A DNA stretch of 64,000 bases from an uncultured delta proteobacterium (GTDB lineage Bacteria > Desulfobacterota > Desulfobacteria > Desulfobacterales > UBA2156). The first letter of the stretch is position 1; the number at the start of each line of letters is the position of its first letter. A program made the translations under genes and the position numbers. The DNA lies in contig CAVTQK010000023.1 of NCBI GenBank assembly GCA_963736855.1, positions 64,001 through 128,000 of the forward strand, given 5' to 3'. The notes beneath the pieces were generated by a model. It was not told the origin of the DNA. It was given only the letters and a program-made list of their open reading frames with translations, and ran no database searches. Below are positions 14,351 to 44,963 of the stretch, piece by piece.

Positions 14351-14353
14351 GTT

Positions 14354-15739: not shown

Positions 15740-15741
15740 TC

Positions 15742-16413: not shown

Positions 16414-16422
16414 GTTCCTGAG

Positions 16423-21110: not shown

Positions 21111-21134
21111 AGGTTTTGTAAGGAGCCTTAGGAT

Positions 21135-22745: not shown

Positions 22746-22825
22746 TTGATAGAAAAAGATTCACATTTCATCGATTGTATGTTAAGAGTTTTCAGAGAAA
22801 CCAACCATCAATAAAGGGGGAAATC

Positions 22826-23311: not shown

Positions 23312-23326
23312 GAAAGGGAGGGTCGT

Positions 23327-24811: not shown

Positions 24812-24834
24812 ACCGATCATTCAAGGAGGTCACG

Positions 24835-25323: not shown

Positions 25324-25336
25324 CGGTTAATTGCAA

Positions 25337-25750
25337 ATGAGAGAAGCGCGGCTTCTTGAACGCATCCGACACTGGGAAAAAGAACCGCACCGCCGCTCAC
25401 GGGAGGATCCGGGCAGAGTCATCGACTCCGTTATGAACTATCTGCAGCGGATCCTCAACACGCGCCGGGGGAACGCCCCGATCGCCGAAGATTTTGGTAT
25501 TCCCGATTTCACCGAATTTTTAAGCTCCTATCCTGACTCGTTACGGGAATTCGAACGGACGATCCGGGAAACGATTTTAAAATTTGAACCTCGTTTAAAG
25601 GCGGTCCGAGTATCTTTTATCCCTCAGGAAGAGGATCCGTTCGCCATCCATTTCCAAATTGCAGCCCGTTTGACCGCCGAGCATGGAAACCAGCCGGTAC
25701 AATTCGTCAGCCTGATGGATCATGAAGGCCGGATTCGGATCAACCGGTAA
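25337..25750 (+). CDS. tssE: T6SS baseplate subunit TssE (gp25-like)
   Basis: LQRILNTRRG, DFGIPD, ILKFEPRL. Confidence 0.93.
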   Translation: MREARLLERIRHWEKEPHRRSREDPGRVIDSVMNYLQRILNTRRGNAPIAEDFGIPDFTEFLSSYPDSLREFERTIRETILKFEPRLKAVRVSFIPQEEDPFAIHFQIAARLTAEHGNQPVQFVSLMDHEGRIRINR

Positions 25751-25783
25751 TCTATTCATTGTGCAAGGCTCGTTAGGAGATTC

Positions 25784-27517
25784 ATGTTCAACCGCTATTT
25801 TCAACAGGAACTCGCCAATCTGAAAGATCTGGGCGCGGAGTTTGCCAAGGCCCATCCCGCCGTGGCGCCCATGCTCAGCGGCCCTTCCTCCGATCCGGAT
25901 GTCGAACGACTGTTGGAAGGTGTGGCATTTTTAACCGCTCAGATTCGCGAAAAGCTGGATGATGAATTTCCTGAAATCATTCATGAGCTGGCCCAGCTCA
26001 TCTTGCCCCACTACTTAAGACCGATCCCTTCCTGTTCCATTGTCGCCTTCAATCCCAAACCAGCCCTGAAGCAGCCAATGACCATACCTGCCGGTATTCA
26101 GGTGGCTTCAGTACCCGTAGAAGGTACCGTCTGCCAGTTTAAAACCTGCTACGACGTCGAGATCCACCCCTTGCAACTGAAAGATGCGGCCTATGTGGAA
26201 ACGCCGGGAAAACCACCCGTCATCCGGATCGGCCTGGAGCTAAAAGGCGTAGAACTCCATAACTGGCGGCCGGGCACTCTCCGCTTCCATCTTGCCGGCA
26301 ATTACAGCGAGGCCGCTGATAACTATTTTATTTTCCGGCAACAAATCCGGCGGATCATGGTTCGAACACCGGAGACGGAAAAATTATTTATCCTCGGACC
26401 TGACCACGTGAAACCCGTCGGATTTTCATCTACCCAGAGTGTGATCCCCTATCCTTCCCATTCGTTTCCGGCTTACCGGCTTTTGCAGGAATATTTTAAT
26501 TTTCCGCAGAAATTTCTGTTTTTCGACCTGACAGGCATGGACCGATGGGGCGATCGGGGCGGCGGCAACCGTTTTGAGCTTCATTTTGAACTCGATGCGA
26601 ATCCAGAAAAACCGCCTCGCATTCGAACCGAGGATTTTGTCCTTTTTGCGACACCGATCATCAACCTCTTCCCCTTCGACGCGGATCCGATTCGAATAGA
26701 CCATCGTCAAAGTGAATGCCGGGTTCGCCCGGCCGCCTCCAATTCAACCCATTACCAGGTTTACTCCATCGAGAATGTGGTAGGCCATATCCAGGGAACC
26801 GCCAAAGCAAGAGAATATAAGCCCTTCGATTATTTCAAGTTGGATGTCGAATCCCATCCTGTCTATCAATTGTCGTTGAAAAAATCTCCTGTCCGCCCCG
26901 GTGCCGAAATCTATCTTCAAGTCGCCTATCCACCCGATGCCGGACCGCCCATGATCGAAACACTTTCGCTCAAATTGATTTGCACCAACGGCATCCTGCC
27001 CGAAAACATCCATGTGGGAGATATTTCACAATCCACCAGCAGCTCTCCTGAATATGCGAATTTCACCAACATAACACCTCCAACCTTGTCTGCATATCCA
27101 CCCCTGGGGACCAACCTGCTTTGGAGACTTCTGTCCCATTTGAATTTGAATCATGTATCGTTGACCAGCGCAACCAACTTCAAAGCGCTTTTAGGATTGT
27201 ACCTGTTTCCCGAAACCCGCGACCAGACCGGCCGACTGGCCAATCAGAAACGGATCAACGGTATTGAAGAGATCACCTCCAAAGCCGCCGACCGATTGGT
27301 ATCCGGCTTGTTGATGCGCGGCCGGGAAATTACGGCAAACACCCGTCACGATCACTTTTCCGGAGAGGGTGATCTATACTTATTCGGATGCGTGTTGGAC
27401 GAATTTTTCGGACTCTATTCATCCATCAATGCCTTTACCCGTTTTTCATTGAAAGACATCTTAAAAGGAAAAGTGTATCAATGGTCGGCTCGGATAGGCG
27501 ATCGCCCGATGATCTGA
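25784..27517 (+). CDS. tssF: T6SS baseplate subunit TssF
   Basis: YFQQEL, DPDVERLLEGVAFL, PHYLRPIPS, YRLLQEYF, SINAFT. Confidence 0.96.
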   Translation: MFNRYFQQELANLKDLGAEFAKAHPAVAPMLSGPSSDPDVERLLEGVAFLTAQIREKLDDEFPEIIHELAQLILPHYLRPIPSCSIVAFNPKPALKQPMTIPAGIQVASVPVEGTVCQFKTCYDVEIHPLQLKDAAYVETPGKPPVIRIGLELKGVELHNWRPGTLRFHLAGNYSEAADNYFIFRQQIRRIMVRTPETEKLFILGPDHVKPVGFSSTQSVIPYPSHSFPAYRLLQEYFNFPQKFLFFDLTGMDRWGDRGGGNRFELHFELDANPEKPPRIRTEDFVLFATPIINLFPFDADPIRIDHRQSECRVRPAASNSTHYQVYSIENVVGHIQGTAKAREYKPFDYFKLDVESHPVYQLSLKKSPVRPGAEIYLQVAYPPDAGPPMIETLSLKLICTNGILPENIHVGDISQSTSSSPEYANFTNITPPTLSAYPPLGTNLLWRLLSHLNLNHVSLTSATNFKALLGLYLFPETRDQTGRLANQKRINGIEEITSKAADRLVSGLLMRGREITANTRHDHFSGEGDLYLFGCVLDEFFGLYSSINAFTRFSLKDILKGKVYQWSARIGDRPMI

Positions 27518-28539
27518 AATTAACTCTGATCAAGGAAGGGCGTGCATTTTCTTTCTACCAGGTGATGCGGCTGCTGCGCCTTTTTGACAAAAACACCCGG
27601 ACGGGCGATGCCACATATCTGACATCAGCCAACATTCGAATATTTCCGAATTTATCCCTGACATTCCCTGCTTCGGATGTCGAGAAGATACAAGCGATTG
27701 AAGGAGATAACGCGACCCGCTACCATGTCACGGCCAATTTTCTCGGCCTCTACGGTTCATCTTCTCCCTTACCCACCTTTTACACGGAAGACCTCATCGA
27801 TGAAGCATCCGATGATGAATCCGCCGGCCGTGAATTTATCAACATCCTGAACCATCGGCTCTACCTGTTATTGTTCGAGACCTGGGAAAAATATCGTCAA
27901 TTTATCCAGGTCACAGAGGAAAAAAATCCGCAATATATCGAACGCCTGTTTTGCCTGATCGGCCTGGGCGAAACGATCCATCGCAAAGAAATCCCGGATG
28001 CCCTCCGATTGCTTCGCTACATGGGGCTTTTTTCACAATTTCCACGATCGGCTGCAGGATTGAAGACAATCCTGGAAGACGCGCTGGGTCTCCCGGTTGA
28101 GGTCGTCCCCTGTGTCATGCGCAAGGCCAGAATCCCGGATGATCAGCTTCTAAGGCTGGGAAAATTCGGTGCCGTCCTTGGAAAAAGCAGCTTTGTGGGC
28201 CGGGAGATTCCAGACCGAACGGGTAAATTTCGTCTCCGGGTAGGTCCGTTGAGCGCTGTCGATTATCGCCGTTTTTTCCCAGGAAGCGATACGTACAATG
28301 AATTGGTGATGCTGACGAACCTGTACCTATTGGATCCATTGGAGTATGAACTGGAAGTCTACATGCAAAAAAAGCAGACTCAGACCGCCCGATTGGGTGG
28401 GGCTGAATGGTCTCGGTTGGGCATGGATACCTGGCTTTTTGCCGGCAAAGAGATCGGTGAGACCAAGAGTACTTTTTATCCGACCCGATATTCATCGGTT
28501 AATCAGAATGTGACCATCAATAATGGGATAACGAGTTGA
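27481..28539 (+). CDS. tssG: T6SS baseplate subunit TssG
   Basis: FSFYQVMRLL, LTFPASD, FLGLYGSSSPLPTFYTE, RSAAGL. The start at ATG 27481 overlaps the tssF end. Confidence 0.94.
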   Translation: MVGSDRRSPDDLKLTLIKEGRAFSFYQVMRLLRLFDKNTRTGDATYLTSANIRIFPNLSLTFPASDVEKIQAIEGDNATRYHVTANFLGLYGSSSPLPTFYTEDLIDEASDDESAGREFINILNHRLYLLLFETWEKYRQFIQVTEEKNPQYIERLFCLIGLGETIHRKEIPDALRLLRYMGLFSQFPRSAAGLKTILEDALGLPVEVVPCVMRKARIPDDQLLRLGKFGAVLGKSSFVGREIPDRTGKFRLRVGPLSAVDYRRFFPGSDTYNELVMLTNLYLLDPLEYELEVYMQKKQTQTARLGGAEWSRLGMDTWLFAGKEIGETKSTFYPTRYSSVNQNVTINNGITS

Positions 28540-28580
28540 GTGACTAGTCGTCTGACGAAAATCTTACATAGGAGAAATTC

Positions 28581-31217
28581 ATGATATCCGTCGATATCAA
28601 ATCGCTTCTTAAACGCCTGAACAAGTATTGTACACGCTGCCTGGAAGGGGCTGCCGGTTTATGCGTATCCCGAACGCATTATGAGGTAACAGTGGAACAC
28701 ATTCTATCCAAACTCCTTGAAGAACCCCAGTCGGATCTTCCGTTGATACTCCGCCATTTCGAGATCGATATCGGTCGGATGAGCAAGGCCCTCGATCAAA
28801 CCCTTGAAGAATTTCGCACCGGCAACGCGGCCAAACCGGTCTTCTCACCACTGCTGATCGAATGGTTTCAGGAATCCTGGTTGATTGCTTCGGTGGATCT
28901 GACCGAAAACAGGATCCGCTCCGGCGCTCTCCTGCTTGCCTTTTTAAGAAACCCGACGCGGTTTGCCACCGGTCGGTTTGCGGATCTCTTGGCCGGCATC
29001 AGTCGGGATGCCCTGCAATCGGCCTTTCAGAACATCGTCCAATCTTCGGTGGAACAACCTTCTCCCGAAGATCAGATTGCCGGGGAAAAACCCCTGCCCG
29101 GCGAAACTACCGCCCTCAAACAATTCTGCGTCAATTTTACTGAAAAAGCGGCTCGGGGTGAAATCGATCCGGTCTTCGGACGGGATCAGGAAATCCGCCA
29201 AATGGTCGATATTCTGGCCCGAAGGCGAAAAAACAACCCCATCGTCGTCGGTGAGGCAGGTGTCGGAAAAACGGCTGTGGTGGAAGGCCTGGCCCTTCGA
29301 ATTATGAAGGAGACGTCCCTCAGATGCTTCGGGATGTCGCCATCCTGGGCCTGGATATGGGGTTGCTCCAGGCCGGGGCCGGTATCAAGGGCGAGTTCGA
29401 AAATCGGCTCAAATCGGTCATCAACGAAATCAAGGCATCACCACAGCCGATCATTCTCTTTATCGACGAAGCGCATACGCTCATCGGTGCCGGCGGCCAA
29501 GCCGGCGGAAGCGATGCGGCCAATCTGCTCAAACCCGCCCTGGCCAGGGGCGAGCTGCGAACCGTCGCCGCCACCACCTGGTCGGAGTACAAGAAATATT
29601 TTGAAAAGGACGCGGCCCTGGCCCGCCGGTTTCAACTGATTAAACTCGATGAACCCTCCGAAAAGACCGCTGTTCTCATCCTGCGGGGTTTGAAAGAAAA
29701 GTATGAAGAAGCCCATGGAGTCGTCGTGAGGGATGATGCCATTCTGACGGCAGCCGAGCTGTCCAATCGATATATCTCCGGCCGGCAGCTCCCGGACAAA
29801 GCAGTGGATCTTCTGGATACCAGCGCCGCCAGGGTGAAGATCCTGCTTACAGCCAAACCGGACATTATCGAGGACAAGGAACGAACCGTCCAAGCTTTGG
29901 AAAGAGAGAGAAAAGCCATTGAACGGGATCGACTGCACGGCATTTCGGTTGAAGAAGAACGATTGAAAGCCATCGATACGGAATTGGAGGCTTTGAACCA
30001 TGTCTTGAGTGAATTGAAAGATCGATGGCTCAAGGAACAGGAACTGGGCCAAAACATCGTCGAATTACGGAAGGAATTATACACCCTCAAGACCCACGAA
30101 TCCGGTGAAACCACCGAACAAACCACAACTCTGAAATCCCGCATTGATGAAACCACCCAAAAACTGACTTCCCTCCAAAACAATGCGCCTCTTGTGCGCA
30201 TCGAAGTGGATCCGGATGTGGTCGCCAAAGTGGTATCCGACTGGACCGGAATCCCCCTGGGCCGGGTGATGCGGGACGAAGCTAGAAATGTGATCCACCT
30301 GGAAGAACGATTGAAAGAAAGGATTAAAGGTCAGGATAATGCACTGGCCATTATTGCCCAAGTCGTGAAGGCGGCCAAGGCAGGGTTAAAAGATCCGAAC
30401 CAGCCCCTGGGGATTTTTCTGTCTGGTGGGCCCGAGCGGAACCGGAAAGACCGAAACAGGCCTTGCCGTTGCCGAAATGCTATTCGGCGGAGAGCGCTTT
30501 ATAGCTTCCATCAACATGAGTGAATTTCAGGAGCGTCATACGGTCAGCCGCCTGATCGGATCACCTCCCGGCTATGTCGGCTACGGTGAAGGCGGCGTCC
30601 TCACCGAAGCAATCCGCCAGCGCCCCTACTCGGTGATATTGCTGGATGAGGTGGAAAAAGCCCATCTGGAAGTGCTGAATATCTTCTACCAGGTATTCGA
30701 TAAGGGCGTACTCTCCGACGGAGAGGGCCGGATCATCGACTTTAAAAATTCGGTTATCTTTTTAACCAGCAATCTGGGAACGGATGTCATTACCGAAATG
30801 ACGAGCAGCGGCAGCATGATTCCCTACGAGACCATCCTGAATGCCGTCAGACCGATTTTAAGCAACCACTTCAAGCCGGCGTTGCTGGCCCGCATGACGG
30901 TGGTCCCTTTCCTGACCTTGCCGAATCATGTCCTCAAGGATATCGTGGCCCTGAAACTCAACAAGCTGGCTGCCCGCATGGCCGATACCCATAAAATCAA
31001 ACTGACTTACACCGAATCGGTCAAGGATCAGATCGCAGCGCGTTGTACGGAAGTAGAAACCGGCGCCCGCAATATCGATCACATCATGAGCGGCACGATC
31101 CTGCCCCAGATGTCCAGGGAGATTCTGACCCGCATGAGCGAGGCCGCCATGCCATCGGAAGTTAACCTGGATTTAAACGAAGACGGATCGTTTAAAATTC
31201 TTTTTGAAGGAGCATAG
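28581..31217 (+). CDS. clpV: T6SS ATPase TssH/ClpV, split by two compensating single-base indels (about 29302 and 30422)
   Basis: Three ORF pieces join into about 878 aa: GEAGVGKT...LRI[Y]EGDVPQ, FIDEAHT, then [33 protein letters not shown]. Confidence 0.93.
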
Positions 31218-31219
31218 CC

Positions 31220-33488
31220 ATGGCTGTATTAACCGGCGCGGCTCGAGAGGCTAGATTTCTTTTTAAAGTCGGGGAGATTGATTTCGCCGTGGCGGATTTT
31301 TCCGTCCGGGAAGCGATATCCGAGCCGTTTGATATTGACCTGACCCTTGCCTCGGAAGATGAAATCGACTTTGATGATGTGATCGGTCAGGTGGCACTGC
31401 TCATACTCCTGGAAAGCGAACCGGATCGGTACTTCAATGGCATCGTCAGCGAATTCATGAAGATCGGTCTCAGAGGCCGCTTCTATGTGTACCAGGCCCG
31501 TGTCGTCCCCTCCATATGGCTTTTATCCTTCGAACAGGATTGCCGCATTTTTCAAAATAAAACGGTTCAGGAAATTGTCACTCAGATTTTTAATGAAAGA
31601 AGGATCACATCCGACCGTTTTAAATTCCGTCTCCAAAATACCTATGAACCCCGGGAGTATTGTGTCCAATACCGTGAAACAGACCTGAATTTCATATCCC
31701 GCCTCCTCGAAGAAGAAGGCATATTTTACTTTTTCGAACATGACCGTGAAAAACACCTGATGGTTTTCGGAGACAGTACGGTGAATTATCAACCGATCTC
31801 AGGAACCGTCGCAGTCCCTTTCAGACCCTCGGGGGGTCTTGGAGTTACTGAAGAATTCGTCAAGGATTTCCGCTTTCAACGACAAATTCGGACCGGTAAA
31901 GTCACTTTCCGGGATTATAATTTCATCAGACCTTCCTTGGATTTAACCTCCCAGAAAAAGGCCGACTCCTTCGATGAACTGGAGTACTACGACTATCCCG
32001 GTGAGTACGGCGATAAAAATCGCGGTAAATCGTTAGCCGAAATTCGCTTGCAGGAATCGATGATGTTAAAGGATCGTATTAAAGGTCAGAGCGTTTGCCC
32101 CCGATTTGTACCGGGGTTTACCTTTAAATTGGCCGACCACGACATTGAAGCCTTCAATCAGGAATATCTTCTCATCGAAATCAACCATGTCGGCACACAA
32201 CCCCAGGTGCTTGAGGAAAAGGCCAGCGATGAATCCGGATCCAGCTATGCCAATCACTTTATGGGTGTTCCTTCATCGACCATCATCAGGCCGGCTCGAA
32301 ATACACCGAAACCGGTGGTCGAAGGCGTCCAGACAGCTATAGTGGTCGGGCCCAGTGGTGAAGAAATTTACACCGATGAACATGGGCGAATTAAGGTCCA
32401 GTTTCATTGGGACAGGGAAGGTAAGAAGGACGACAAGTCTTCCTGTTGGATCCGGGTCGCAAGCATCTTTGCAGGCGGCCAGTATGGATCCATCTTCATA
32501 CCCAGAATTGGCCAGGAGGTGGTAGTCGATTTTCTGGAAGGTGATCCGGACCGTCCGCTGGTTACGGGAAGGGTGTATAATGCGGACCTGATGCCTCCTT
32601 ACACGCTCCCCGACAAGAAGACGAAGAGCACGATCAAGACGAACTCTTCCATTGGAGGAGAGGGTTTCAATGAGATCCGATTCGAAGATGAAAAAGGAAA
32701 GGAACAGCTTTTCCTCCATGCGGAAAAAGATTTGGATATCCGTGTAAAAAACGATCGAAGGGAGCTCGTCGGTAATGACCGGCATCTCATTGTCAAGCGC
32801 GATTTAAAAGAAAAAATCGAATTCGATAAGCACGTGACGGTGGAAAAGAGTGAGTTCAAGGAAGTCAAGACCGACTATAATCTTAAAGTCGGCGGCAAGA
32901 CTGCTATTGAGGTGACGGGCTCATCCTCTCTCAAAGTGACAGGCAATATGATCGAGAGTTTCAATGCAAATCACAGTGAGAATGTGACAGGGACCTTTCA
33001 TTTAAAAGGGATGAATATAAAAATTGAAGGGATGACCGGTATGGAGCTCAAAGTGGGCGGGAGCAGTATTGTTCTCACCCCGGCGGCAATTTTTATCCAG
33101 GGAGGTCCCCTGGTCAATATCAATAGCGGCAGTGGTCCGCCGGTTGCACCCGCGTCCAGTTCTCTTGTACCTCCGGTCTGCTCCCTCCCCTCCGGATGCC
33201 GCTGCCGACGCCTCTCCCGGAAAGGATGTGAGCAGTCAAGAAAAGCGCCACAAAGAATCCACCGATGAGGAAAAGAAAGAGAAGAAAAGCTGGATCGAAA
33301 TCGAACTGGTCGACGAGGAAGGCAATCCAGTTCCCGGTGAACGATATAAGGTGACCCTGCCCGACGGAAAGACCGTTGCCGAGGGAACATTGGATGAAAA
33401 TGGCTTTGCCCGCGTGAATGGCATCGATCCTGGAAGCTGCAAAATCACTTTTCCGAATCTGGACAAGGATGCATGGGAGAAGGCATAA
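31220..33488 (+). CDS. vgrG: T6SS spike VgrG with C-terminal transthyretin-like extension, frameshifted at about 33175
   Basis: YCVQYRETDLNF, GRIKVQFHWDR, PRIGQEVVVDF. Removing one G at 33175-6 joins LVPP to SAPSPPD...WIEIELVDEEGNPVPGERYKVTLPDG (about 755 aa). Confidence 0.92.
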
Positions 33489-33505
33489 GAGCATAAGTCC
33501 TGAAA

Positions 33506-34135
33506 ATGCCTGATTACAAAGTAAAACAGGGTGATTGCCTTTCAAGCATTGCTCTTCGATACGGTCTGAAGTGGGAAAAGATCTGGAAACACCCGAAGAA
33601 CTCCAACCTGAGGGAAAAGAGAAAGAACCCCAATGTCCTCTTCCCTGGAGATCTGCTCTTTGTCCCGGAAAAAGAGGAGAAACAGGAGTCCGCTGCAACC
33701 GAGCAGAAACATCGTTTTAAAGTGAAGGGGGTGCCATCGAAACTCATTCTTGTTCTGAAGGATGAAGAGGACAAACCCAGGACCAATGTGAGTTATAACC
33801 TGGATATCGATGGTCAATTATTTTCAGGTAAAACGGATGGAACGGGCAAACTGGAGCATTCGATTCCACCGAATGCCAAAAAAGGAAAGCTGATGATAGA
33901 GGATGGTATTGAAGAGTATTCTTTGCAGCTTGGTACGATCGATCCAATTACTGAAATCATCGGCATTCAAGCAAGGTTGAGCAACTTAGGTTTTTATTTG
34001 GGCCCCATGGACGGAAAGATGAATCCTGAAACCATTGAGGCTATTAAGTACTTCCAGACAGAACACGGATTAACAGCGAATGGAGAGGCCGATCAGGTTA
34101 CCCGTGATAGGCTTCTCGATGAACACGGATGTTAA
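33506..34135 (+). CDS. LysM + TTR-like + peptidoglycan-binding domain protein (copy 1)
   Basis: YKVKQGDCLSSIA...NPNVLFPGDLLFVP (LysM); IQARLSNLGF...DGKM...AIKYFQTEHGLTANG (PG_binding_1). Confidence 0.88.
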   Translation: MPDYKVKQGDCLSSIALRYGLKWEKIWKHPKNSNLREKRKNPNVLFPGDLLFVPEKEEKQESAATEQKHRFKVKGVPSKLILVLKDEEDKPRTNVSYNLDIDGQLFSGKTDGTGKLEHSIPPNAKKGKLMIEDGIEEYSLQLGTIDPITEIIGIQARLSNLGFYLGPMDGKMNPETIEAIKYFQTEHGLTANGEADQVTRDRLLDEHGC

Positions 34136-34150
34136 AAAGGGCATGGCAAT

Positions 34151-35092
34151 ATGAACGATGATGATCTCTGCCATACGATGCCCCAGGATGGCGATGCCTT
34201 GGCAGACATGGCTGGAGATGACTCCAGTGATTCCAGTGATCAGAATCCCATCAATGATCCATCTGGGATGCCAAAAGGGCCGCCTGTTTTCCTCGCAAAA
34301 ACTGCCTTTGGCGCTCCGGCCAATCAAAATACGATAAGGCCCCAAATCCAACTCGAGCCATTAGTGGATCCTCCCGTACGATTGCTCTGCCAATATGACC
34401 CCCGCTGGGGGAGGAAATACCTTAAGAAGCAAAAAAGGGGGAAAGAAAACGAGGCCTATACCTGGACCAAATCAGGTTGTCATCCAACCGGCCTGGCAAT
34501 GATCCTTCGATGGTGGGCAGAAGATAACCCGAAGACAGCGGGAAAAATAAAATTCCCCCACACGGAAAAACCCGACAAAATCGAAACTCCCATCCAGGTC
34601 AACCAATGGCTCTGGAATAAGGTCTATGTCCCTTGCGATAAGACCATCTCTCATAATACGATCTGCAACAGCGTTAAAAAATTAACCCATACGGATTCAG
34701 GTATGCCCATGAAAGGGGAGTACAAAGCTCTTTCAGGGCTGACCGATAAGAAAAAGGCAGAGGCCATTAAAAAGGCCCTCCTATTAGGTCCTGTCCTCAT
34801 AAATATGCTTAAACCCGGACACTTTGTGCTGGTACATGGTTATCGCGATGGCAAAATTTATGTCTGCGACCCAGGCAATACATTGAACCGGTTTTGGGGT
34901 AAACCCATAAAAATTGGAGAGCGAATGCCTCCTGGGACTCTACCGAAATGTGATGATGACAAACGAGGCTATGTGTCGATTCCTGATAAGGAGAAATTTG
35001 AAGAGAAAGGCACATGGCTTTCCACATTGATCCGAATGGAGTCTTTCTACTTTAATGAAAAAGAGGTCCATCCGGAATGGAACAAAAAATGA
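34151..35092 (+). CDS. Papain-like C39-type cysteine peptidase, candidate T6SS effector
   Basis: Q(YDPRW), SGCHPTGLAMIL (Cys), GHFVLVHGY (His), VCDPG (Asp). It lies between vgrG and PAAR. Confidence 0.75.
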   Translation: MNDDDLCHTMPQDGDALADMAGDDSSDSSDQNPINDPSGMPKGPPVFLAKTAFGAPANQNTIRPQIQLEPLVDPPVRLLCQYDPRWGRKYLKKQKRGKENEAYTWTKSGCHPTGLAMILRWWAEDNPKTAGKIKFPHTEKPDKIETPIQVNQWLWNKVYVPCDKTISHNTICNSVKKLTHTDSGMPMKGEYKALSGLTDKKKAEAIKKALLLGPVLINMLKPGHFVLVHGYRDGKIYVCDPGNTLNRFWGKPIKIGERMPPGTLPKCDDDKRGYVSIPDKEKFEEKGTWLSTLIRMESFYFNEKEVHPEWNKK

Positions 35093-35115
35093 GTTGTTAA
35101 TCAAGGAGGACAACT

Positions 35116-35473
35116 ATGTTTCCTGCAGCACGAATTTTAGATCCCATAACACATGATCAGATTGTACCAAGTGGAGTGATCGGCCCGCCCTTGCCAGGGC
35201 GACCCATGACTGTTCTTGATCGAATATCTTCCAGCCGCAGTAATGGGAGATTTTGTGACCTGTACGGGGGTTTTATCCGTTGGCATCGTCCATCCACCAC
35301 AGGCCGGCCCTCCTCCGGCCATTCCCCCCTCTGTTCCGATCGTCAAGGGAAGTGCTACTGTTTTAATCGGTGGTATGCCTGCAGCCCGCTGGATCGCGGA
35401 TATGGCTGGATGTGGCGTTTTTTTAGGCGATTCAAAACTTGCGGCCACCCGTACCGTATTGATTGGAGGTTAA
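35116..35473 (+). CDS. PAAR-repeat spike tip protein, frameshifted at about 35214
   Basis: MFPAARILD...TVL|IEYLPAAVMGD...GSATVLIGGMPAAR...TVLIGG. Removing one base gives 118 aa. Confidence 0.88.
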
Positions 35474-35481
35474 GGCAGAAA

Positions 35482-36133
35482 ATGCCCGATTATCAAAGTC
35501 AAAGAGGGTGATTGTATCGAGAGCATCGCCTTCGAGAGCGGGCTCTTCTGGAAGACCGTGTGGAACCATCCGAATAATCGGAATTTGTGCGAAAAGCGGA
35601 AGGACCCCAATGTTCTTATGCCCGGCGACAGAGTATATGTCCCCAAGATCAGAGAGAAGCATGAAAGAGGCGGCACTGAGCAATGCCACCGATTTCGACG
35701 GTGCGGTGTGCCCGGAAAGCTGAAGCTGCGATTCCTTGATCACGAGAAGAAGCCCAGGGCCGGCGCACAGTACGTGTTAGAGGTAGATGGACAGACCATG
35801 GCCGGTTCTCTGGACCACAACGGAGTGCTGCAGGCGGTCATACCTCCCAATGCTCGGAAGGCCAAGATAACAGTAGGGATTGATGATGACAGTGAGGAGT
35901 TTGAGATGAAGTTGGGCGGGCTCGATCCGATCACCGAAGTCTCGGGCATTCAGGCACGCCTCAACAATCTCGGGTACGACTGTGGATCGACAGATGGTAT
36001 CTTGAACATGCGCACGGAGACCGCTATCCGGTCGTTCCAGGCGAACTATAATCTGGAGGTCACGGGTGAAATGAACCAGGCCACGCGAGACAAGCTTTTT
36101 GAAGCATATGATAACAAAGAGATCGCAGGTTGA
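35482..36133 (+). CDS. LysM + TTR-like + PG-binding protein (copy 2), frameshifted at about 35495
   Basis: ATG CCC GAT TAT (+1 nt) continues as VKEGDCIESIA...WNHPNN...KDPNVLMPGD. It is collinear with copy 1. Confidence 0.85.
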
Positions 36134-36136
36134 GCG

Positions 36137-37300
36137 ATGCCTAACCAAACACGAAGAGGTAATAATAATACATTTACACCACCTAGAATTACCTACGCGA
36201 AGATTCAGCTGACCCAGCCAATTAGACCAGCGTTTCCGAAGATAGCTCCTCTGTGGAACCAGTTTCGCTTTATCGATATCACGCCGAAAGTCGACGGCAA
36301 GACGGTCGGCAGCCTCAATAGACAAAAGGTAATGGGGCCTGGCGGCGTGATAAAGAAGGATGGCACGATCGCCTCTATCGCAGAGACGTTCCTTAGGGAA
36401 ATGGAAAAGGTCACTCCTGATTGGTACTTCATCTCCGGGCACCATGCACGATTGTATTCATCTGATGAAGACAGGTACCGGCGGATCACGCGCCAGGAGG
36501 TGGCCCGAATACCGAGGGATTCATATGACGAGCTTCTTGTGTATGATCAGGAAGAACGCGGATACCGCAAGCTAACGGCCCAGGAGCGGGCTCTCTTGCC
36601 TAACAATTTGCAAAAAGACCTGTATGTATCTGAAAAGGCAGCTAAGTACAGCGGTTTCTTCAACGATCACTATCACCATGCGCGTTGGGCGGTAGCCACA
36701 CGATCAAGGTTCAAGCGTGACGATATCATTCCGCTTTTACGGGAGCGACAGCAACAGATGAAGCCCACCGATAAAACGCGGCCTGTGTTACCCGATGACA
36801 TGGACTATGAGTTGTTTCTACGAAGCACCGAACATGCTCCCACCTCGATGCGCGAGCATGATGACTTTAATCCTCTATTCAGCTTTGATGGTGACGCCGC
36901 GAGAAAAGCCAAGTGCAAGGGCGTCATCCTCGCGGCCTGTAATACTCTCCAAAGCAAAGAGACCATATTACCTTGGTTCACACGTTTCCCTGATTCATTG
37001 ATCATCGGCTCGCGTCTGGTCCTGCGGGGAGGTTGGGAGCTGTGTAAAGCTATCGCCCAAGCGCCGTTGGCCAGAAATCGGAAATTCTGGGAGAATCCAA
37101 GAGCCTATTTTGGCAACGACCGGAAGAAAGTCAAGAGATTCGTAGAACAGTTAGCCGGTAAAATGAGACATCCCGATGGCGGTGGATACGGCCTTGGTCT
37201 TATTTACTATGGTGACTTCTACACTTCGCAGCGTGACGCATCGGGTAGGACATCCGTTCAATGTGTCGACTTAATCGCATGGAAGGTTGTGAGCCCATGA
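36137..37300 (+). CDS. Hypothetical basic protein, candidate T6SS effector with caspase/CHAT-like His-Cys motifs
   Basis: WYFISGHH...GVILAACNT. It sits in an effector slot after a LysM gene. Confidence 0.6.
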   Translation: MPNQTRRGNNNTFTPPRITYAKIQLTQPIRPAFPKIAPLWNQFRFIDITPKVDGKTVGSLNRQKVMGPGGVIKKDGTIASIAETFLREMEKVTPDWYFISGHHARLYSSDEDRYRRITRQEVARIPRDSYDELLVYDQEERGYRKLTAQERALLPNNLQKDLYVSEKAAKYSGFFNDHYHHARWAVATRSRFKRDDIIPLLRERQQQMKPTDKTRPVLPDDMDYELFLRSTEHAPTSMREHDDFNPLFSFDGDAARKAKCKGVILAACNTLQSKETILPWFTRFPDSLIIGSRLVLRGGWELCKAIAQAPLARNRKFWENPRAYFGNDRKKVKRFVEQLAGKMRHPDGGGYGLGLIYYGDFYTSQRDASGRTSVQCVDLIAWKVVSP

Positions 37301-38277
37301 TTGGTAATCAAACAACAGCAACTCCGTTAATGGCCGTCCGGACTACAGCAGAGATAGATCGAGTTTCGTCAGTCTCGTCCATGAGACTTCTATTACTGCA
37401 GTTTGGTGACCGTCTCCTCGGTGTCCGGGAAATCGAACTCCTGGCCATGATGACCATGGTATCAGAGCTGAATCTGCTATCTCTCCCTGGAACACTCCAG
37501 GTTGCCTCAGGGGTGAGCACGAGCGACGCTTGGACGGTCAATGCGATGAACGGAGCCGTGGTTGTTTTAGGGCCTGCTCTGGCCACCATCACTTCGCTCG
37601 ACGACCTTTCATTGCGACGAGATATACAGATATCAGAAATTCCACCACAGATCAGTGCCCTCGTCCTCAACCATAAGAACTCGTTGCTGCTGTGCGAGTC
37701 GTTCCAGTTACATGATCCGGAATTCGGCCAGTTCGCAGCGGTCTGCCTTGACCTGAAACGGGGGGATGTCATCAATTCGCGCTGCATCACCTCTATGGAA
37801 CCCCTGGAAGCTATATGGGTTGAGGAGTTAGAATCATTCATGATATACGACTTCCAGAGTGATTCCCTATGGCGGTGGTCGCCCTTAAAAGGCGAACCGC
37901 TTACCATTGACGAGACCGTTCTAAACGACCTGCAAGTTACAAGTTTTATTTTCGAGTCTTCTGGAAGACGTTTGACCAAGATCCTGTCTGACTTCGGTGG
38001 AAATCAATTTAAACTTTTACGAGGTATAGCCTCACAGAATAATGTCTCCTGGGGGACACCAGTGGCCTTACCGGATGGGGAATATGAGAGTATTAACTGG
38101 CATCCCAAGGAGGATATCTTCGCCTGCATCCATACCATTGGCGGGGAAATGTACCTCAGCTTAGCTCGGAGCGGTTGTGTCGGAACTCCTTTCCCTGAAA
38201 GCGATTCTTTTGTTTGTTGGTCAATCGGGGAAGTTTGTTATCATTATGCAAGCAATCGGAGTGGGTTAAAAATCTAA
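37297..38277 (+). CDS. Hypothetical acidic, beta-rich (propeller-like) protein, candidate immunity protein
   Basis: ATGA overlap with the upstream candidate effector; INWHPKEDIFA-like strands. The C-terminus may be truncated. Confidence 0.5.
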   Translation: MIGNQTTATPLMAVRTTAEIDRVSSVSSMRLLLLQFGDRLLGVREIELLAMMTMVSELNLLSLPGTLQVASGVSTSDAWTVNAMNGAVVVLGPALATITSLDDLSLRRDIQISEIPPQISALVLNHKNSLLLCESFQLHDPEFGQFAAVCLDLKRGDVINSRCITSMEPLEAIWVEELESFMIYDFQSDSLWRWSPLKGEPLTIDETVLNDLQVTSFIFESSGRRLTKILSDFGGNQFKLLRGIASQNNVSWGTPVALPDGEYESINWHPKEDIFACIHTIGGEMYLSLARSGCVGTPFPESDSFVCWSIGEVCYHYASNRSGLKI

Positions 38278-38730: not shown

Positions 38731-40185
38731 ATGCCCACCATCCGCATCCATGTTGAAAAAGGTGGTTCCGACCAGAAAGACTATTCCTTTACCGAAGCCT
38801 TTCGGATCGGGCGCGGGAGCACCTGCCAGGTCCGGCTGACCGACAATGTCGTAAGCCGGCAACACGTGGAAATCCTGTTTATCGGCGACCGTTGGTGGAT
38901 ACAGGATCTGGGAAGCGCCAATGGTACCTTCATCGCCGACCGACGCATTGAACGGGAGCCTCTGGAAAACGGCACCCAAATCCGACTCGGACCCGATGGC
39001 CCACTGCTTATTGTTTCCCTTGAAGAGGCCGCCCCACCCGAAACACCTGAACAAGACGCCCAATCACTCACCTATTATCGGAACCATTACCTCGAAAGCA
39101 AGGATGAAGGAAAAGCCGGGCAGCATACGATGATGATACGGAAGGCCTTCTCCCAGGTCCAAAAAAAACAGAAAAGAAAATATTTTACCATCATCGGTAT
39201 TGTCGTTTGTCTCCTCATCGTAGTCGGCACTTTCGCAACCGTCAAACATTACCAGCTCAAAAAACAGCGCAAGCTGGCCGAGGATATCTTCTATAACATG
39301 AAGGTAATGGAGCTGGACTTTTCCGAACTGTTGAGGATTGCCCGGGAAACGAAAGATAAGAAAATCATCGAAAAAGTCGATCAATACAAGACCAAACGCC
39401 GGGAGATGGAGACAAAATACGACCGTTTCATCGAAACGCTTAAAGTCTATAAAAAAGACATGAGTCCTCAAGAACGACTGATTCTCCAAAAAGCGAGAAT
39501 TTTCGGCGAATGTGAAATCAACGTGCCTGAAGATTTTGCCAGGGAAGTGTTGAGGTATATCGACAAGTGGAAATCGAGTCCGCGCATGGCGGACGCCATC
39601 GATTGCGCCCAAAAAAATAGCTATATCGATATCATCAGTCAAACGCTGGCCACTTATGATCTGCCGCCGGAATTTTTTTATCTGGCACTACAGGAGAGCA
39701 ATTTTAATAAAGACGCCGTCGGTCCGGAGACCCGATGGGGATTCGCCAAGGGGATGTGGCAATTTATTCCTGATACGGCAAAGCGATATGGCCTAAAAAC
39801 AGGACCGTTGGTCAAGCAGAACCGACCCGACCCGAAAGATGATCGACACAATCCGAAAAAAGCCACACTGGCCGCGGCGAAATACCTGCGCGATATATAT
39901 GATACGGACGCTCAGGCTTCGGGGCTTCTCGTCATGGCATCATACAACTGGGGAGAAAACCGCGTGATCGAACTGATCCGGAAAATTCCCGAAAATCCGC
40001 GTGACCGTAATTTTTGGAATCTGCTCGTTAAGTACAAGGAAAAAATTCCAGCCCAAACCTATGATTATGTTTTTTTTATTTTCTCGGCGGCCGTCATCGG
40101 AGAAAATCCCAGGCTTTTCGGATTCGCCTTTGACAATCCTCTGGGTACGATTCAACCGGCTGAGGCCAAAGCAGTGAAAGGATAA
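38731..40185 (+). CDS. FHA domain - TM - Slt lytic transglycosylase fusion
   Basis: FHA motifs IGR...VSRQH...DLGSANGT, a TM helix, and Slt motifs QESNF, GMWQFIPDTA, AAAKYL, ASYNWGE. Confidence 0.9.
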   Translation: MPTIRIHVEKGGSDQKDYSFTEAFRIGRGSTCQVRLTDNVVSRQHVEILFIGDRWWIQDLGSANGTFIADRRIEREPLENGTQIRLGPDGPLLIVSLEEAAPPETPEQDAQSLTYYRNHYLESKDEGKAGQHTMMIRKAFSQVQKKQKRKYFTIIGIVVCLLIVVGTFATVKHYQLKKQRKLAEDIFYNMKVMELDFSELLRIARETKDKKIIEKVDQYKTKRREMETKYDRFIETLKVYKKDMSPQERLILQKARIFGECEINVPEDFAREVLRYIDKWKSSPRMADAIDCAQKNSYIDIISQTLATYDLPPEFFYLALQESNFNKDAVGPETRWGFAKGMWQFIPDTAKRYGLKTGPLVKQNRPDPKDDRHNPKKATLAAAKYLRDIYDTDAQASGLLVMASYNWGENRVIELIRKIPENPRDRNFWNLLVKYKEKIPAQTYDYVFFIFSAAVIGENPRLFGFAFDNPLGTIQPAEAKAVKG

Positions 40186-41927: not shown

Positions 41928-43508
41928 CTACCACAACAGGGACAGCTCCACCTTTTCACCCGACGGCAAGATTTGACGTGACGGTGTGAGAATAATTCGA
42001 ACGGGTATTTTCCCTTCAGAATCAGGCTTACCGGTATCAATTTCCAGCATTTCAGGTTCCGGATTTCCGCGATGCTCCCAAAAAAGCCGAAACGCCTCTC
42101 TGATTCGGCCTTTAAGCGTGGCCGATTCGAGCCCTTCCTCAAATTTATCCTGACACCACAGTATCAATCGGGTCACGAGTCCTACCAAGAGCTGGTAATC
42201 GACCGGGGTCCTTCCAGTCGTTACCGCCGAAGGTAAAAACACGAAGTCGCGTCCGCTCACCCCGGCCATGGGCATGATTCCGGCTTTCACCATCTGGTCA
42301 ATCCGATTTTCAGACAGTGCCGTTTCCGCGGGATGCGGATGACGGGGGTCGGTCATGTCAAGAGGCAGGTTTTCAAGGCTTCCCGACTTCATACCGACAA
42401 AACGGGTCGGCCATCCAGTTTGTATGACGCGTCGACAGATCAGGTTTCCTACCGCCCAAACCGGGCTGATCCATAGAGACCGACGCTCCGCAAACGACAC
42501 CTGCCGGGGTTTATTGTCCGGGCCATACGGATAACGAGCCAACAGGCAATTCCCGATAACCCCTAGCCATCGTCCCGCGGGAGAATCACCCAAGATTCGC
42601 CATTTGGCAAAAGATGCATCGTCCAGATGGTGGGGCAGAAATGTCAGCTTGTCCAAATCCTTCCAAGAATTGATCTGGAAAAATTTGGGCGTGATCCAAA
42701 CCATGGACGGGGCAAGTAGAGTTTCTGAAAATTCGGCAATTTTTTTCATCAAATCCAAACATCTTGGGGAACTGTCGAAAGGCATATCCACCAGAACCAG
42801 GGATGGCGGATCTTGCAGCTGTTGAGCCATCAAGAAGGATAGGTTCTCTTCCAACAATTCGGGTTCGCAAGGGAAAATGTCAATTTCAACCTGTCCATTT
42901 GTGCCCCCATGTTTCATGAGCAGTTCCAGGCCCCGCCAGGCCGCTTCCATTTGCCTGAACGGTTCATAGTCGAAAATATTCACCATGCACTGGCTAAGAA
43001 TTCTATCCAAGTCGGATGAAACCGTTCTGGATTCTAAAGGGGTCTTTGATCCATTTTCCGGCATCGCCACCATAGAAAGAATGCTGTCTATTTGTGAAGA
43101 CGTATCGTCACCCGGTTTCCGGGCAATATCTTTTTGCGGGGTCTGAACCTTTAAAGCCGGCAGGTCCGGCCAGGTTTGAAGACCTGTTCTTATCTGATTT
43201 TCGGATAACCCCTTTTTGCCGGCATCCGCCATAAAATCACTGGCTTCCTTGATTTGGCTCAGATATCGGTTGCTCTGAATAAGTCCGTCCGGCGTGAAAT
43301 CCTTTATTTCTTTGAATTGCAGATCCACGCTGCCGGCCGGGCATAATGTCTGCGGCATCGGAATGCGGAGTACAGGATTCAATATTTTCAGGGCCTCTGA
43401 AAGCTCTCCCTGACGGATCCGTAAAGTTTCACGGATACCCGTAGGAGCATCACCGGACAAAAATGTCGCCAACGCCAAGACTTTGAATGGAATATCGGGA
43501 ATCTCCAT
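41928..43508 (-). CDS. Divergent TssB-TssC fused sheath-like protein
   Basis: N-terminal IPFKVLALATF...FKEIKDFTPDGL (TssB-like), then FRQMEAAWRGLELL, LARYPYG, LWISP, LENLP (TssC-like). Confidence 0.8.
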   Translation of the reverse strand: MEIPDIPFKVLALATFLSGDAPTGIRETLRIRQGELSEALKILNPVLRIPMPQTLCPAGSVDLQFKEIKDFTPDGLIQSNRYLSQIKEASDFMADAGKKGLSENQIRTGLQTWPDLPALKVQTPQKDIARKPGDDTSSQIDSILSMVAMPENGSKTPLESRTVSSDLDRILSQCMVNIFDYEPFRQMEAAWRGLELLMKHGGTNGQVEIDIFPCEPELLEENLSFLMAQQLQDPPSLVLVDMPFDSSPRCLDLMKKIAEFSETLLAPSMVWITPKFFQINSWKDLDKLTFLPHHLDDASFAKWRILGDSPAGRWLGVIGNCLLARYPYGPDNKPRQVSFAERRSLWISPVWAVGNLICRRVIQTGWPTRFVGMKSGSLENLPLDMTDPRHPHPAETALSENRIDQMVKAGIMPMAGVSGRDFVFLPSAVTTGRTPVDYQLLVGLVTRLILWCQDKFEEGLESATLKGRIREAFRLFWEHRGNPEPEMLEIDTGKPDSEGKIPVRIILTPSRQILPSGEKVELSLLW

Positions 43509-43550: not shown

Positions 43551-44675
43551 TTATCCGACAATCCGTTGAATAACTATCATCAACCGGTTCCACCATTCTT
43601 TTAATACACCGGCGGTGCCTCCGTCCGATGCGCTGGTGTTGAAAAAAACCTGCCAAACAACTATCGAAACCACGATAACAAAAAGCCCGATTAGAAAAAA
43701 CAATAGACCGTGACCCCGCCGCTTGAATTCAGGAACCCCCGGCCAGGCAGCATTCGCTTTTTCTAATGGTTTTCGAGAATCTTCTTCCATGGGTCGGCCG
43801 GCAACTTCTGCCAAGCGCCCGCCGCTTAAAAATTGGAAAACCGGTCCTCGGGGACCCAAAGACAAATGACTGCCTGGGTGAAGAGGAGTCTGGGAGCTTA
43901 CGGGTAAATCGTTAATGGTGACTAAACCCTGACCCGTCAAATCCTTAACCCAATAATTGTTCTCATAAAAAAAGATTTGGATATGCCGGTCGATAATATC
44001 GGCATGGTTGATGATGAAGTTACAATCATCCTTTTTCCCCACAACCACCGGAAGCATCTTAAAAGACTGAATGGTGGGACCCAACTGAATTGTCAGAGGA
44101 GCTTGAATCCGTGCTTCGGCCGGATCCGGTCTCCGTGGCGGTTCCGCAATCCTGGAAGGCATCTGTTCAGCGGACACTTTTGACAGAAGCGATTGCTTGG
44201 GGAATGGGGGTGACGGCCGATCCGGCGTTTGTACCTTTATGTGGTCTTCGGGGGCCGAGGCCGGCAGAGGGGTTACAGGAGGCTTCAGGGAAAACGCCGA
44301 TGCGTCTTTATCAGGTGTACCCAAAGAAGGTACGGAATACTCAACACCGGCCTCTTTTATCTCGGTCAGAAAACTGATCTTTGGGCCGCCTTCTCCTATC
44401 GTGAGCACATCGCCGTTTTTTAAGAACGTCTCCTTGACCGCCTTCCCATTGACGAAACTCCCGTTGGTGCTATGATCAACGAGCTTGAACCGATTCCCCT
44501 CCCGAACGATTTCTGCGTGGTTCCGGGAGATGAGGGTCAGGTCTTTAGGAAAACGTATTTGGCAATCGGGGTGTCTGCCGATTCGGATAACCGGGTCAGT
44601 GGACTCCTCGACTTTCCCTTTCAGGGGGCCGGCAATGTGAACGAGCTGAACGACAATGACCGGCTTTTCATGCAT
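43551..44675 (-). CDS. Double-FHA domain protein with Pro-rich linker and C-terminal TM
   Basis: FHA1 IGR...ISRNH...STNGS; degenerate FHA2 VGK...IDRH...DLTGQG; TM LLFFLIGLFVIVVSIVVW. Confidence 0.85.
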   Translation of the reverse strand: MHEKPVIVVQLVHIAGPLKGKVEESTDPVIRIGRHPDCQIRFPKDLTLISRNHAEIVREGNRFKLVDHSTNGSFVNGKAVKETFLKNGDVLTIGEGGPKISFLTEIKEAGVEYSVPSLGTPDKDASAFSLKPPVTPLPASAPEDHIKVQTPDRPSPPFPKQSLLSKVSAEQMPSRIAEPPRRPDPAEARIQAPLTIQLGPTIQSFKMLPVVVGKKDDCNFIINHADIIDRHIQIFFYENNYWVKDLTGQGLVTINDLPVSSQTPLHPGSHLSLGPRGPVFQFLSGGRLAEVAGRPMEEDSRKPLEKANAAWPGVPEFKRRGHGLLFFLIGLFVIVVSIVVWQVFFNTSASDGGTAGVLKEWWNRLMIVIQRIVG

Positions 44676-44963
44676 AATAATAGCATCCGAAAAGCAAAGT
44701 GGGATAAGAAACTCAGAATACACGTTCTGAATGACATAAAAAGTATAGCTTACAGTATGGCCATAATGTCAAGAAAATTCACCCCGATTTCGTCGGTTAA
44801 ATGAAAATATCATTGTCACCTTATATGGGTTATGCTATTTTATTTAAAATTACCAGATTCGTCCAGTCGCTCAACCGGCATCGACGGTATCCAATAAAGA
44901 TCGATTATCCAATTCAATCTCCATACCAATCGTGATGGTACAAAAGGGGAACCTGGACAGGTG

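Follow-up and report, generated by a model that had tools for sequence, protein, structure and literature searches.

The DNA analysed here is a 64,000-nucleotide stretch (hereafter the window) from an uncultured delta proteobacterium of the Desulfobacterales (GenBank assembly GCA_963736855.1, contig CAVTQK010000023.1, positions 64,001 to 128,000 of the forward strand), in which a complete type VI secretion system (T6SS) cluster spans 13796-33488 and comprises tssJ, K, L, M, tagF, tssA, B, C, hcp, tssF, G, clpV and vgrG. The variable end of this cluster, 3' of vgrG, is formed by two cassettes, each headed by a paralogue of one small protein family, which we call FAM1 and FAM2, and each continuing with a different open reading frame (ORF). 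Using a combination of profile comparison, a survey of homologous loci and structure prediction, our work points to a distant common descent of the middle domain of this family and the transthyretin-like (TTR) tail of VgrG, and leads us to regard FAM1 and FAM2 as probable secreted adaptors, or co-effectors, that dock on the T6SS spike on behalf of the cargo encoded downstream. The genes and features of the region are as follows.

31220..33488, + strand: vgrG spike gene (Pfam Phage_GPD at E 5e-95, with Phage_base_V and Gp5_trimer_C)
33276..33482, + strand: TTR-like tail domain of VgrG, 69 amino acids, the predicted docking socket
33506..34135, + strand: FAM1, 209 amino acids, described from Pfam domains and an AlphaFold2 model
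33515-33667, within FAM1: LysM domain
33671-33736, within FAM1: conserved linker
33737-33949, within FAM1: beta-sandwich
33959-34114, within FAM1: PG_binding_1 domain
34151..35092, + strand: cargo candidate 1, 313 amino acids, putative papain-like (C39-like) cysteine peptidase from its Peptidase_C39_2 match
35116..35473, + strand: PAAR spike-tip gene (PAAR_motif at E 7.3e-11 on the second-frame piece 35216-35473)
35482..36133, + strand: FAM2, the second paralogue, recognised by homology to FAM1 and by its PG_binding_1 domain
36137..37300, + strand: cargo candidate 2, 387 amino acids, of no known family
37261..38277, + strand: ORF of 338 amino acids overlapping the end of cargo candidate 2, with no Pfam or NCBIfam match; possibly an immunity gene, to judge from its position

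FAM1 and FAM2 are collinear from end to end and identical at 105 of 208 positions (50%; E 5e-76), far beyond chance, with cargo candidate 1 starting 16 bp past the end of FAM1 and cargo candidate 2 starting 4 bp past the end of FAM2. The two cargo candidates themselves show no relationship by BLASTP (best E 2.1). A first-pass annotation of the window, made from the letters and a program-made list of ORFs, had reported two paralogues each directly 5' of an unrelated ORF, and this cassette observation stands, because the paralogues are collinear and half identical and the proteins behind them are unrelated.

Domain architecture and descent of the middle domain

Pfam places a LysM domain (PF01476) at residues 4-54 of FAM1 (E 1.7e-7; 31.5 bits against a cut-off of 20.9) and a PG_binding_1 domain (PF01471) at residues 152-203 (E 1.3e-12; 48.1 bits against a cut-off of 23), the latter being recognised equally in the homologous frame of FAM2 (E 1.5e-14; 54.4 bits against 23). 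The LysM domain is divergent and falls below the Pfam threshold in FAM2 and in many relatives. By sequence, PG_binding_1 matches the N-terminal domain of SleB (6tci_A, E 1.6e-6), and LysM weakly matches a LysM tail tube initiator (9g8s_T, E 0.0031). An AlphaFold2 model of FAM1 built from 52 sequences has a mean predicted local distance difference test score (pLDDT) of 83 and resolves the chain into LysM, linker, six strands at residues 78-141 and a helical PG_binding_1 domain. The linker is among the best conserved parts of the family, with T65, H69, F71, K74 and P77 nearly invariant, and its residues 63-73 have a pLDDT below 50 in this monomer model; being conserved yet disordered on its own, the linker suggests a binding motif.

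Conservation is unevenly distributed along the protein. Across 36 pairs of copies from the same locus, LysM (0.61) and linker (0.63) are conserved above sandwich (0.40) and PG_binding_1 (0.43), a pattern that fits a constant half that would bind the spike and a variable half behind it. The annotation was right that these proteins carry no signal peptide: LysM begins at residue 3-4, and in 208 of 251 family proteins the family match is preceded by fewer than 20 residues. A Pfam scan of FAM1 and FAM2 detected no DUF4123, DUF1795 or DUF2169 adaptor domain, and no MIX, FIX or RIX was seen in it.

The likeness of the middle domain to the VgrG tail, which the annotation had also proposed, is weak when single sequences are compared and clear when profiles are. 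BLASTP of FAM1 against the VgrG tail is not significant (E 8.4), and FAM2 shares 17 of 60 identities with it at E 6e-5. With hhalign, a middle-domain profile (50 of the 77 middle domains then known, long insertions and near-duplicates being left out) matches a tail profile (44 of 57 tails) at a probability of 96.2% and E 2.4e-9 over 43 columns, which cover the first half of the domain, and a hidden Markov model (HMM) of the tail picks up the middle domains in register. The tail profile in turn matches the TTR domain of the enteroaggregative Escherichia coli (EAEC) VgrG (6sjl_A residues 782-832, E 3.8e-4) and VgrG2b (6h56_A, E 1.4e-4), and single tails match the Pfam families CarboxypepD_reg (25 of 44) and SpaA (23 of 44) below the curated cut-offs. 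These profile comparisons make a good case for distant homology between the sandwich and the VgrG TTR tail.

The predicted fold is by itself a weak guide to this assignment. Flexible linkers mixed LysM, PG_binding and small-sandwich matches when the whole protein was searched against the Protein Data Bank (PDB) with Foldseek, and the middle domain was therefore modelled alone, giving six strands at a pLDDT of 82. Foldseek returned no match to this domain-only model at E <= 0.001. By query-normalised template modelling (TM) score, it resembles many small sandwiches at 0.56-0.68, including macroglobulin domains, CnaB2 (8bdw_H) at 0.68, SpyCatcher at 0.67 and the transthyretin-family hydroxyisourate hydrolase (3qva_B) at 0.63; the EAEC VgrG structure 6sjl_A scores 0.48. 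Similarly, the 50 middle domains match transthyretin-clan Pfam families in a handful of cases, all at E > 0.01 (CarboxypepD_reg 2, SpaA 1, Transthyretin 1), and 17 of the 50 weakly match MG4. The TTR-like character claimed by the annotation thus holds as profile homology to the VgrG tail, whereas the fold alone is non-specific and would describe any generic small sandwich. Further evidence that sandwich and tail are interchangeable relatives comes from two proteins, L018:1375-1842 and L029:3499-3969 (loci of the survey described below), in which a VgrG-type tail domain replaces the sandwich behind LysM and linker; a normal family member is encoded immediately 3' of each.

Gene order at the spike and the variable cargo

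The family is large and spans several phyla. A word-based search gave 268 homologues at E <= 0.001 among 352 candidates, nearly all about 208 amino acids long, and an exhaustive search gave 11786 cluster representatives at E <= 0.001 and 1656 at E <= 1e-30, each representing a cluster at 50% identity, with PG_binding_1 repeat proteins also present at the top of the list. A genome scan restricted to one genome per species yielded 74 loci (L-numbers), taken from the best 80 of 164 confirmed stretches and belonging to Acidobacteriota, Planctomycetota, Thermodesulfobacteriota, Myxococcota and others; with the window they make 75 sources. A six-frame HMM search finds 104 full copies in these sources, on which all copy counts below are based. 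A first, greedy gene call had given only 77, having missed copies in GC-rich loci where spurious opposite-strand ORFs won.

The copies lie close to the spike genes in many of these sources. A VgrG core or tail is present in the fetched DNA of 49 of the 75, and 38 of the 104 copies start at most 150 bp (typically 12-30 bp) after a tail on the same strand, with 6 more at 151-1000 bp, 18 further down the same array and 5 at a contig end. In the window, the family gene stands on the same strand between vgrG and the downstream ORF. The copies occupy the variable region behind vgrG and are not found among tssA-M. In the DNA fetched, 53 sources carry one copy, 15 carry two and 7 carry three, and none carries more. 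A VgrG trimer likewise has three tails, which may be coincidence.

These numbers bear on the idea of a structural role for the protein as a LysM component in the baseplate or hub, of the kind found in phage tails and extracellular contractile injection systems (eCIS). The weak match of its LysM to the tail tube initiator and the position of its gene beside vgrG would agree with such a role. A structural part is hard to reconcile with between one and three copies per locus, with a different gene behind every copy, with placement in the variable region, or with copies that are orphans far from any vgrG; moreover, T6SS-linked LysM domains are reported to be phylogenetically distinct from those of phages and eCIS (PMC10673891). 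We consider a baseplate role very improbable.

The tail occurs in three settings: as the C-terminus of VgrG in many loci, as a free-standing protein of 126-191 amino acids, or behind PAAR. It is continuous with the VgrG beta-helix in L001, L002, L004, L019, L020, L024 and others, and occupies a separate frame in the window. A free-standing tail directly 5' of the adaptor characterises a group of acidobacterial (Pyrinomonadaceae/Pyrinomonadales) and other loci, with TTR proteins of about 134 amino acids at L012:9581-9985, L022:9581-9985, L023:8262-8669, L032:9578-9985, L047:9582-9986 and elsewhere. As side observations on this group, a nearby VgrG ends in a cysteine-rich tail rather than a TTR domain in several of the loci, and the scanned neighbours of the free-standing tail in L012 include a DUF4123 protein, encoded two genes further 5'.

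Fusions join the elements at each junction of this order. PAAR, tail and family module form one uninterrupted ORF in L053 and L073, the same order recurs in the protein P0167, and in P0125 the whole family module is fused to Amidase_3, an N-acetylmuramoyl-L-alanine amidase. The stand-alone form prevails (208 of 251 family proteins), and none of 683 candidates from a word-based search proved to be a longer, fused relative, which is weak evidence.

The PAAR fusions also bear on a role as a cytoplasmic chaperone or adaptor which, like DUF4123 (Tap/Tec), DUF1795 (Eag) or DUF2169 proteins, hands the cargo to VgrG and stays behind. Such a role would share with the classical adaptors a gene placed between vgrG and cargo, and would need no signal peptide. 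Where PAAR, tail and family module are one chain, however, that chain must be exported as part of the spike. It is also not evident what purpose LysM and PG_binding_1 would serve in the cytoplasm, and neither paralogue matches the three chaperone families in Pfam; DUF4123 and DUF2169 proteins occur instead as separate neighbours in L012 and L006. A chaperone that remains in the cell therefore appears quite unlikely to us. A role of the adaptor itself as an immunity protein was likewise considered and rejected: the protein is conserved while its neighbours vary, its gene lies 5' of the cargo, and in three cases it is fused to PAAR.

Behind the family gene the sequence changes character from one copy to the next. 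Walking downstream through same-strand ORFs of at least 90 amino acids, chained within 300 bp, we find a candidate cargo gene for 96 of the 104 copies, mostly within 100 bp, and the 96 candidates fall into 39 families if any BLAST match counts or 48 if at least 60% cover is required. Variable ORFs thus follow the homologues, as the annotation had anticipated for a cassette. Among 71 downstream proteins scanned from the first gene call, 52 match no Pfam family at E <= 0.001; the others match Peptidase_C39_2, Peptidase_M19, Amidohydro_2 (including the candidate L003:1825-5406), Metallophos, PAD, Reprolysin_4, OmpA or PG_binding_1, and include peptidase, amidohydrolase, phosphoesterase and arginine deiminase types, with PG_binding_1 in short paralogues of the family. 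Three large cargo families give weak metallopeptidase leads.

In the window, the Peptidase_C39_2 match of cargo candidate 1 has an E-value of 9.4e-6 (26.7 bits against a cut-off of 24). Its N-terminal portion of about 90 residues looks disordered, and an orthologue occupies the same position in L001. A PDB sequence search with this protein gave no match, and the leads from the protein Atlas, all below 0.9, were confined to C39/C47. Cargo candidate 2 matches nothing in Pfam or NCBIfam, and neither a PDB sequence search nor the protein Atlas returned anything usable; its sole relative among the loci, L021:7766-8632, likewise lies behind a family member.

Two subgroups are worth noting. A short paralogue of 158-189 amino acids, which has sandwich and PG_binding_1 and lacks LysM and linker, comes first after the adaptor in 15 of the 104 copies (for example L001:14417-14941, L019:10642-11163, L024:10606-11139, and in L059 and L069; there is none in the window), and it accompanies all 12 of 12 members of cargo family C00 (343-409 amino acids, with weak metallopeptidase leads). 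In the second subgroup (L004:17539-18279, L020:10928-11668, L045:2472-3209, L046:9998-10696, L043:3-695), 25-40 acidic, proline-rich residues are inserted where the adaptor sandwich begins, and these adaptors are followed by one cargo family, C02 (578-623 amino acids), in four phyla. On a quick IQ-TREE phylogeny of the 104 copies, the cargo label changes 21 times, where the minimum possible is 15 and 300 shuffles of the labels average 47.3 changes and never fall below 42; for the phylum label the same tree requires 32 changes against a possible minimum of 9. Adaptor and cargo thus travel together across phyla.

Predicted docking on the VgrG tail and the proposed adaptor reading

Complex models from the family and tail alignments place the adaptor on the tail in the same manner each time. 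Three runs reach 0.69, 0.71 and 0.69 in the interface score ipSAE (interaction prediction score from aligned errors), and the best of 3 controls reaches 0.00; the mark applied to this score is attained by 116 of 157 solved complexes and by 2 of 215 mismatched pairs. The runs share at least 96% of their contacts, and the partner pLDDT is at least 82. On the adaptor side the predicted interface comprises linker residues 56-75 and 77 together with LysM residues 16, 19-22 and 25, and on the tail side residues 5-14 (the first strand), 16, 19, 22, 26-27, 29 and 50-69 (the last strand and C-terminus). The tightest pairs run from residues 68-72 along the first tail strand and from 61-65 along the last; the interface takes in the nearly invariant T65, H69, F71, K74 and P77, which are disordered in the monomer model. 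The docking model supports binding of the adaptor to the tail. The annotation had proposed loading on the spike, with attention to the middle domain; the predicted docking on the VgrG tail agrees with the former, but the modelled contact runs through linker and LysM, and the sandwich takes no part in it.

We therefore consider it probable, with somewhat better than even confidence, that FAM1 and FAM2 are secreted spike-docking adaptors of the T6SS for the cargo encoded behind them. The N-terminal LysM and the linker, around residues 61-72, would plug into the TTR-like C-terminal tail of VgrG, with the linker adding beta-strands to both edges of the tail sandwich. The more variable C-terminal half, made of the TTR-derived sandwich and PG_binding_1, would hold the cargo, and we infer that spike, adaptor and cargo would be fired together. 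With two peptidoglycan-binding domains and no signal peptide, the adaptor may then hold the cargo at the cell wall of the prey, and adaptor and cargo genes would form a cassette that is duplicated and exchanged as a unit.

Published work already contains the core of this idea. Wang et al. described in 2023 LysM and PG_binding_1 among six domain families encoded between vgrG and toxin genes, stand-alone or fused, and proposed that the LysM proteins load effectors on VgrG (PMC10673891), so that the family studied here cannot count as a new class; the loading of toxins on the spike by proteins of this kind is likewise an idea already in print (PMC10673891, PMC11796386). In their experiments the effector Kalk_10455 of Ketobacter alkanivorans GI5 co-precipitates with VgrG only if the stand-alone LysM protein Kalk_10460 is present, and Kalk_10460, a small non-toxic LysM protein (PMC10673891), is encoded between vgrG and effector as in the window family. 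Differing from our description, that study treats LysM and PG_binding_1 as separate families, with PG_binding_1 only in gamma-proteobacterial families, and its available text describes no TTR-derived middle domain, conserved linker, free-standing TTR proteins or tandem cassettes. What the annotation took for a class of adaptor or co-effector is thus borne out in its homology, its link to the spike, its variable cargo, its predicted tail docking and a published bridge, but the class as such had been recognised before.

Tae17 of Acinetobacter baumannii offers a structural parallel. Binding of this protein to VgrG17 requires both its Ig-like and its LysM domain, which lie at the N-terminus, and in an AlphaFold2 model the strand between them lies edge-to-edge on the TTR domain of VgrG17 (PMC11796386). 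As in our model, a TTR domain captures a beta-strand next to a LysM domain and an Ig-like sandwich. In contrast, Tae17 carries its module as the N-terminal part of the toxin, with Ig-like domain, strand and LysM in that order (PMC11796386), whereas the window adaptor runs LysM, strand, sandwich, PG_binding_1 and is a separate protein with no catalytic domain. EAEC VgrG1 similarly uses a C-terminal TTR domain as the socket of its effector Tle1 (6sjl), the domain to which our tail profile is related at E 3.8e-4; compared with it, the window VgrG lacks DUF2345 by Pfam, its predicted partner is an adaptor rather than the lipase itself, and tails of its type occur elsewhere free-standing or behind PAAR.

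Further T6SS proteins invite comparison. The secreted adaptors and tethers MIX and RIX are, like the window family, conserved stand-alone or N-terminal modules that mark polymorphic cargo, and they can be co-secreted with another effector (PMC10435454); they are unrelated to the window adaptor in fold and family. TsxE of Myxococcus xanthus, a protein with LysM and amidohydrolase_2 encoded downstream of vgrG2, is LysM-bearing cargo behind vgrG, as here, but is a single fused protein for which the available text mentions no sandwich or PG_binding_1 (PMC5801462).

Several points weigh against the adaptor reading. No tail is found in the locus of 37 of the 104 copies, and neither a VgrG core nor a tail is present in the fetched DNA of 26 of the 75 sources; even among the 54 sources with at least 5 kb of upstream DNA, 16 lack both and only 38 have either, so orphan cassettes exist. 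The ipSAE values are the model's own confidence rather than a measurement, and come from unpaired alignments; the docking mode may also partly reflect the model's memory of the solved VgrG-Tle1 complex, since the tail is related to the TTR domain in it. On the cargo side, an HMM of the linker run against 3 ORFs downstream of each copy found further family copies and otherwise nothing at or below E 1, no other shared motif appears in cargo candidates or short paralogues, no immunity gene adjoins cargo candidate 1, and the agreement between adaptor tree and cargo is also expected of linked genes that travel together without physical contact. The support from Kalk_10460, in turn, is co-immunoprecipitation in E. 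coli without secretion data, as noted by the reviewers (PMC10673891), and this protein is likened to the window family by description and not by sequence. Finally, the frame breaks described below may mean that the system is non-functional in the window or that its assembly is faulty. The linker HMM was aimed at cargo that would plug into the adaptor sandwich through a linker-like motif, an idea that these matches leave unsupported.

The cargo side also allows a different account, namely that the adaptor rides the spike as a delivered accessory which binds or perturbs prey peptidoglycan, with the neighbouring variable genes being independent cargo that travels by other routes. Two peptidoglycan-binding domains on a protein with no signal peptide would suit such a passenger, the modelled contact concerns the pair of adaptor and tail only, the cargo candidates share no motif, and some loci (L012, L006) have DUF4123 or DUF2169 adaptors. 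An independent passenger would not, conversely, account for the tight adjacency to a variable ORF, for adaptor types that track cargo types across phyla or for the amidase fusion. Moreover, a LysM protein has been published as a bridge between VgrG and effector, and neither a LysM domain alone nor the LysM protein was toxic in two published studies (PMC10673891, PMC12861213), the LysM domain of TseVF (residues 2-49) being dispensable for toxicity (PMC12861213). On balance we hold the passenger account to be unlikely.

Returning to the spike-docking adaptor, we offer with low confidence a broader view of modular plug-and-socket loading. TTR sockets on VgrG, behind PAAR or free-standing would capture the plug formed by LysM and linker; the adaptor's sandwich and PG_binding_1 would act as a second socket that holds the cargo and later anchors it on the prey wall, and the conserved 5' end of the adaptor gene would serve as a recombination handle for cassette swaps across phyla. 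A VgrG trimer with three sockets would, on this tentative view, explain why no locus exceeds three cassettes.

Relative to the earlier work, the present analysis defines a very widespread family of LysM, linker, sandwich and PG_binding_1, points to the descent of the sandwich from the VgrG TTR tail, documents a repeated order of tail, adaptor and cargo with fusions at each junction, and predicts a specific interface between linker and tail. We found no description of the three-domain family, of free-standing TTR proteins or of PAAR-TTR-LysM fusions in open-access papers and bioRxiv preprints, a search that did not cover the supplementary architecture figures of PMC10673891. Two published observations, the LysM bridge between VgrG and effector and the tethering of a beta-strand to a VgrG TTR domain, are here joined, and the interface model singles out the nearly invariant linker residues around T65, H69 and F71. 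The family can also serve to locate T6SS cargo in the genomes of little-studied phyla (Acidobacteriota, Planctomycetota, Thermodesulfobacteriota, Myxococcota and others).

Frame breaks and neighbouring genes

Five frame breaks, all missed by the first-pass annotation, lie between 29.3 and 35.5 kb of the window: two in ClpV, which is spread over three ORFs (28581-29639, 29324-30523 and 30426-31217), and one each in VgrG, PAAR and FAM2. The body of VgrG (31220-33268) is in one frame and its C-terminal tail in another (ORF 33069-33488), with the frame changing near 33177; the intact orthologue, L001:7713-9983, has 756 amino acids. PAAR is split over two frames near 35213 and is intact at L001:11572-11961. 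Taking L001 as reference, single extra bases lie near 30422, 33177 and 35213 of the window. FAM2 has an ATG at 35482 with a ribosome-binding site, from which the frame changes after codon 4 and closes after 9 codons; the homologous frame is open over 35483-36133, offset by one base from about 35493, and the program-made ORF list contains FAM2 only with a GTG start at 35558. The annotation had put both paralogues at the right sites (33506 and 35482), but the ATG frame that begins at the second of them closes almost at once.

The five breaks could reflect a local assembly fault or a recent decay of the firing end of the system. The window cassette might accordingly be a decaying remnant or an artefact, functionless in this genome, as the clustering of the breaks beside intact T6SS genes at 13.8-28.5 kb would allow. 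All shifted frames are nevertheless still open and conserved, and window 32283-35475 aligns at 79% nucleotide identity with its closest relative, L001, in which both vgrG and PAAR are unbroken; these observations fit breaks of very recent date or sequencing errors. We regard a functionless cassette as rather improbable, and the adaptor reading of the family is in any case independent of the window copy.

The comparison with L001 also bears on cassette exchange. Nucleotide similarity ends at the end of PAAR (35475), past which it is confined to the first 140-220 bases of FAM2, which align with the 5' ends of L001 family genes at 67-72%. Judged from this alignment, the cassette behind PAAR has been replaced relative to L001, and the junction coincides with the conserved 5' end of the adaptor gene.

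Downstream of the cassettes, a protein of 484 amino acids (38731-40185, + strand) has an N-terminal FHA domain and a C-terminal SLT lytic transglycosylase domain. Further 3' lie a second FHA protein (43551-44723, - strand), a trypsin-like peptidase (44961-45941) and, after it, a Ser/Thr kinase with a PEGA domain (45966-47666). Besides the canonical tssB and tssC at 22775-24811, a protein of 526 amino acids (41928-43508, - strand) combines a VipA/TssB-like N-terminus (E 1.7e-6) with a VipB/TssC-like part (E 1.7e-34) and is possibly a divergent sheath-like fusion protein.

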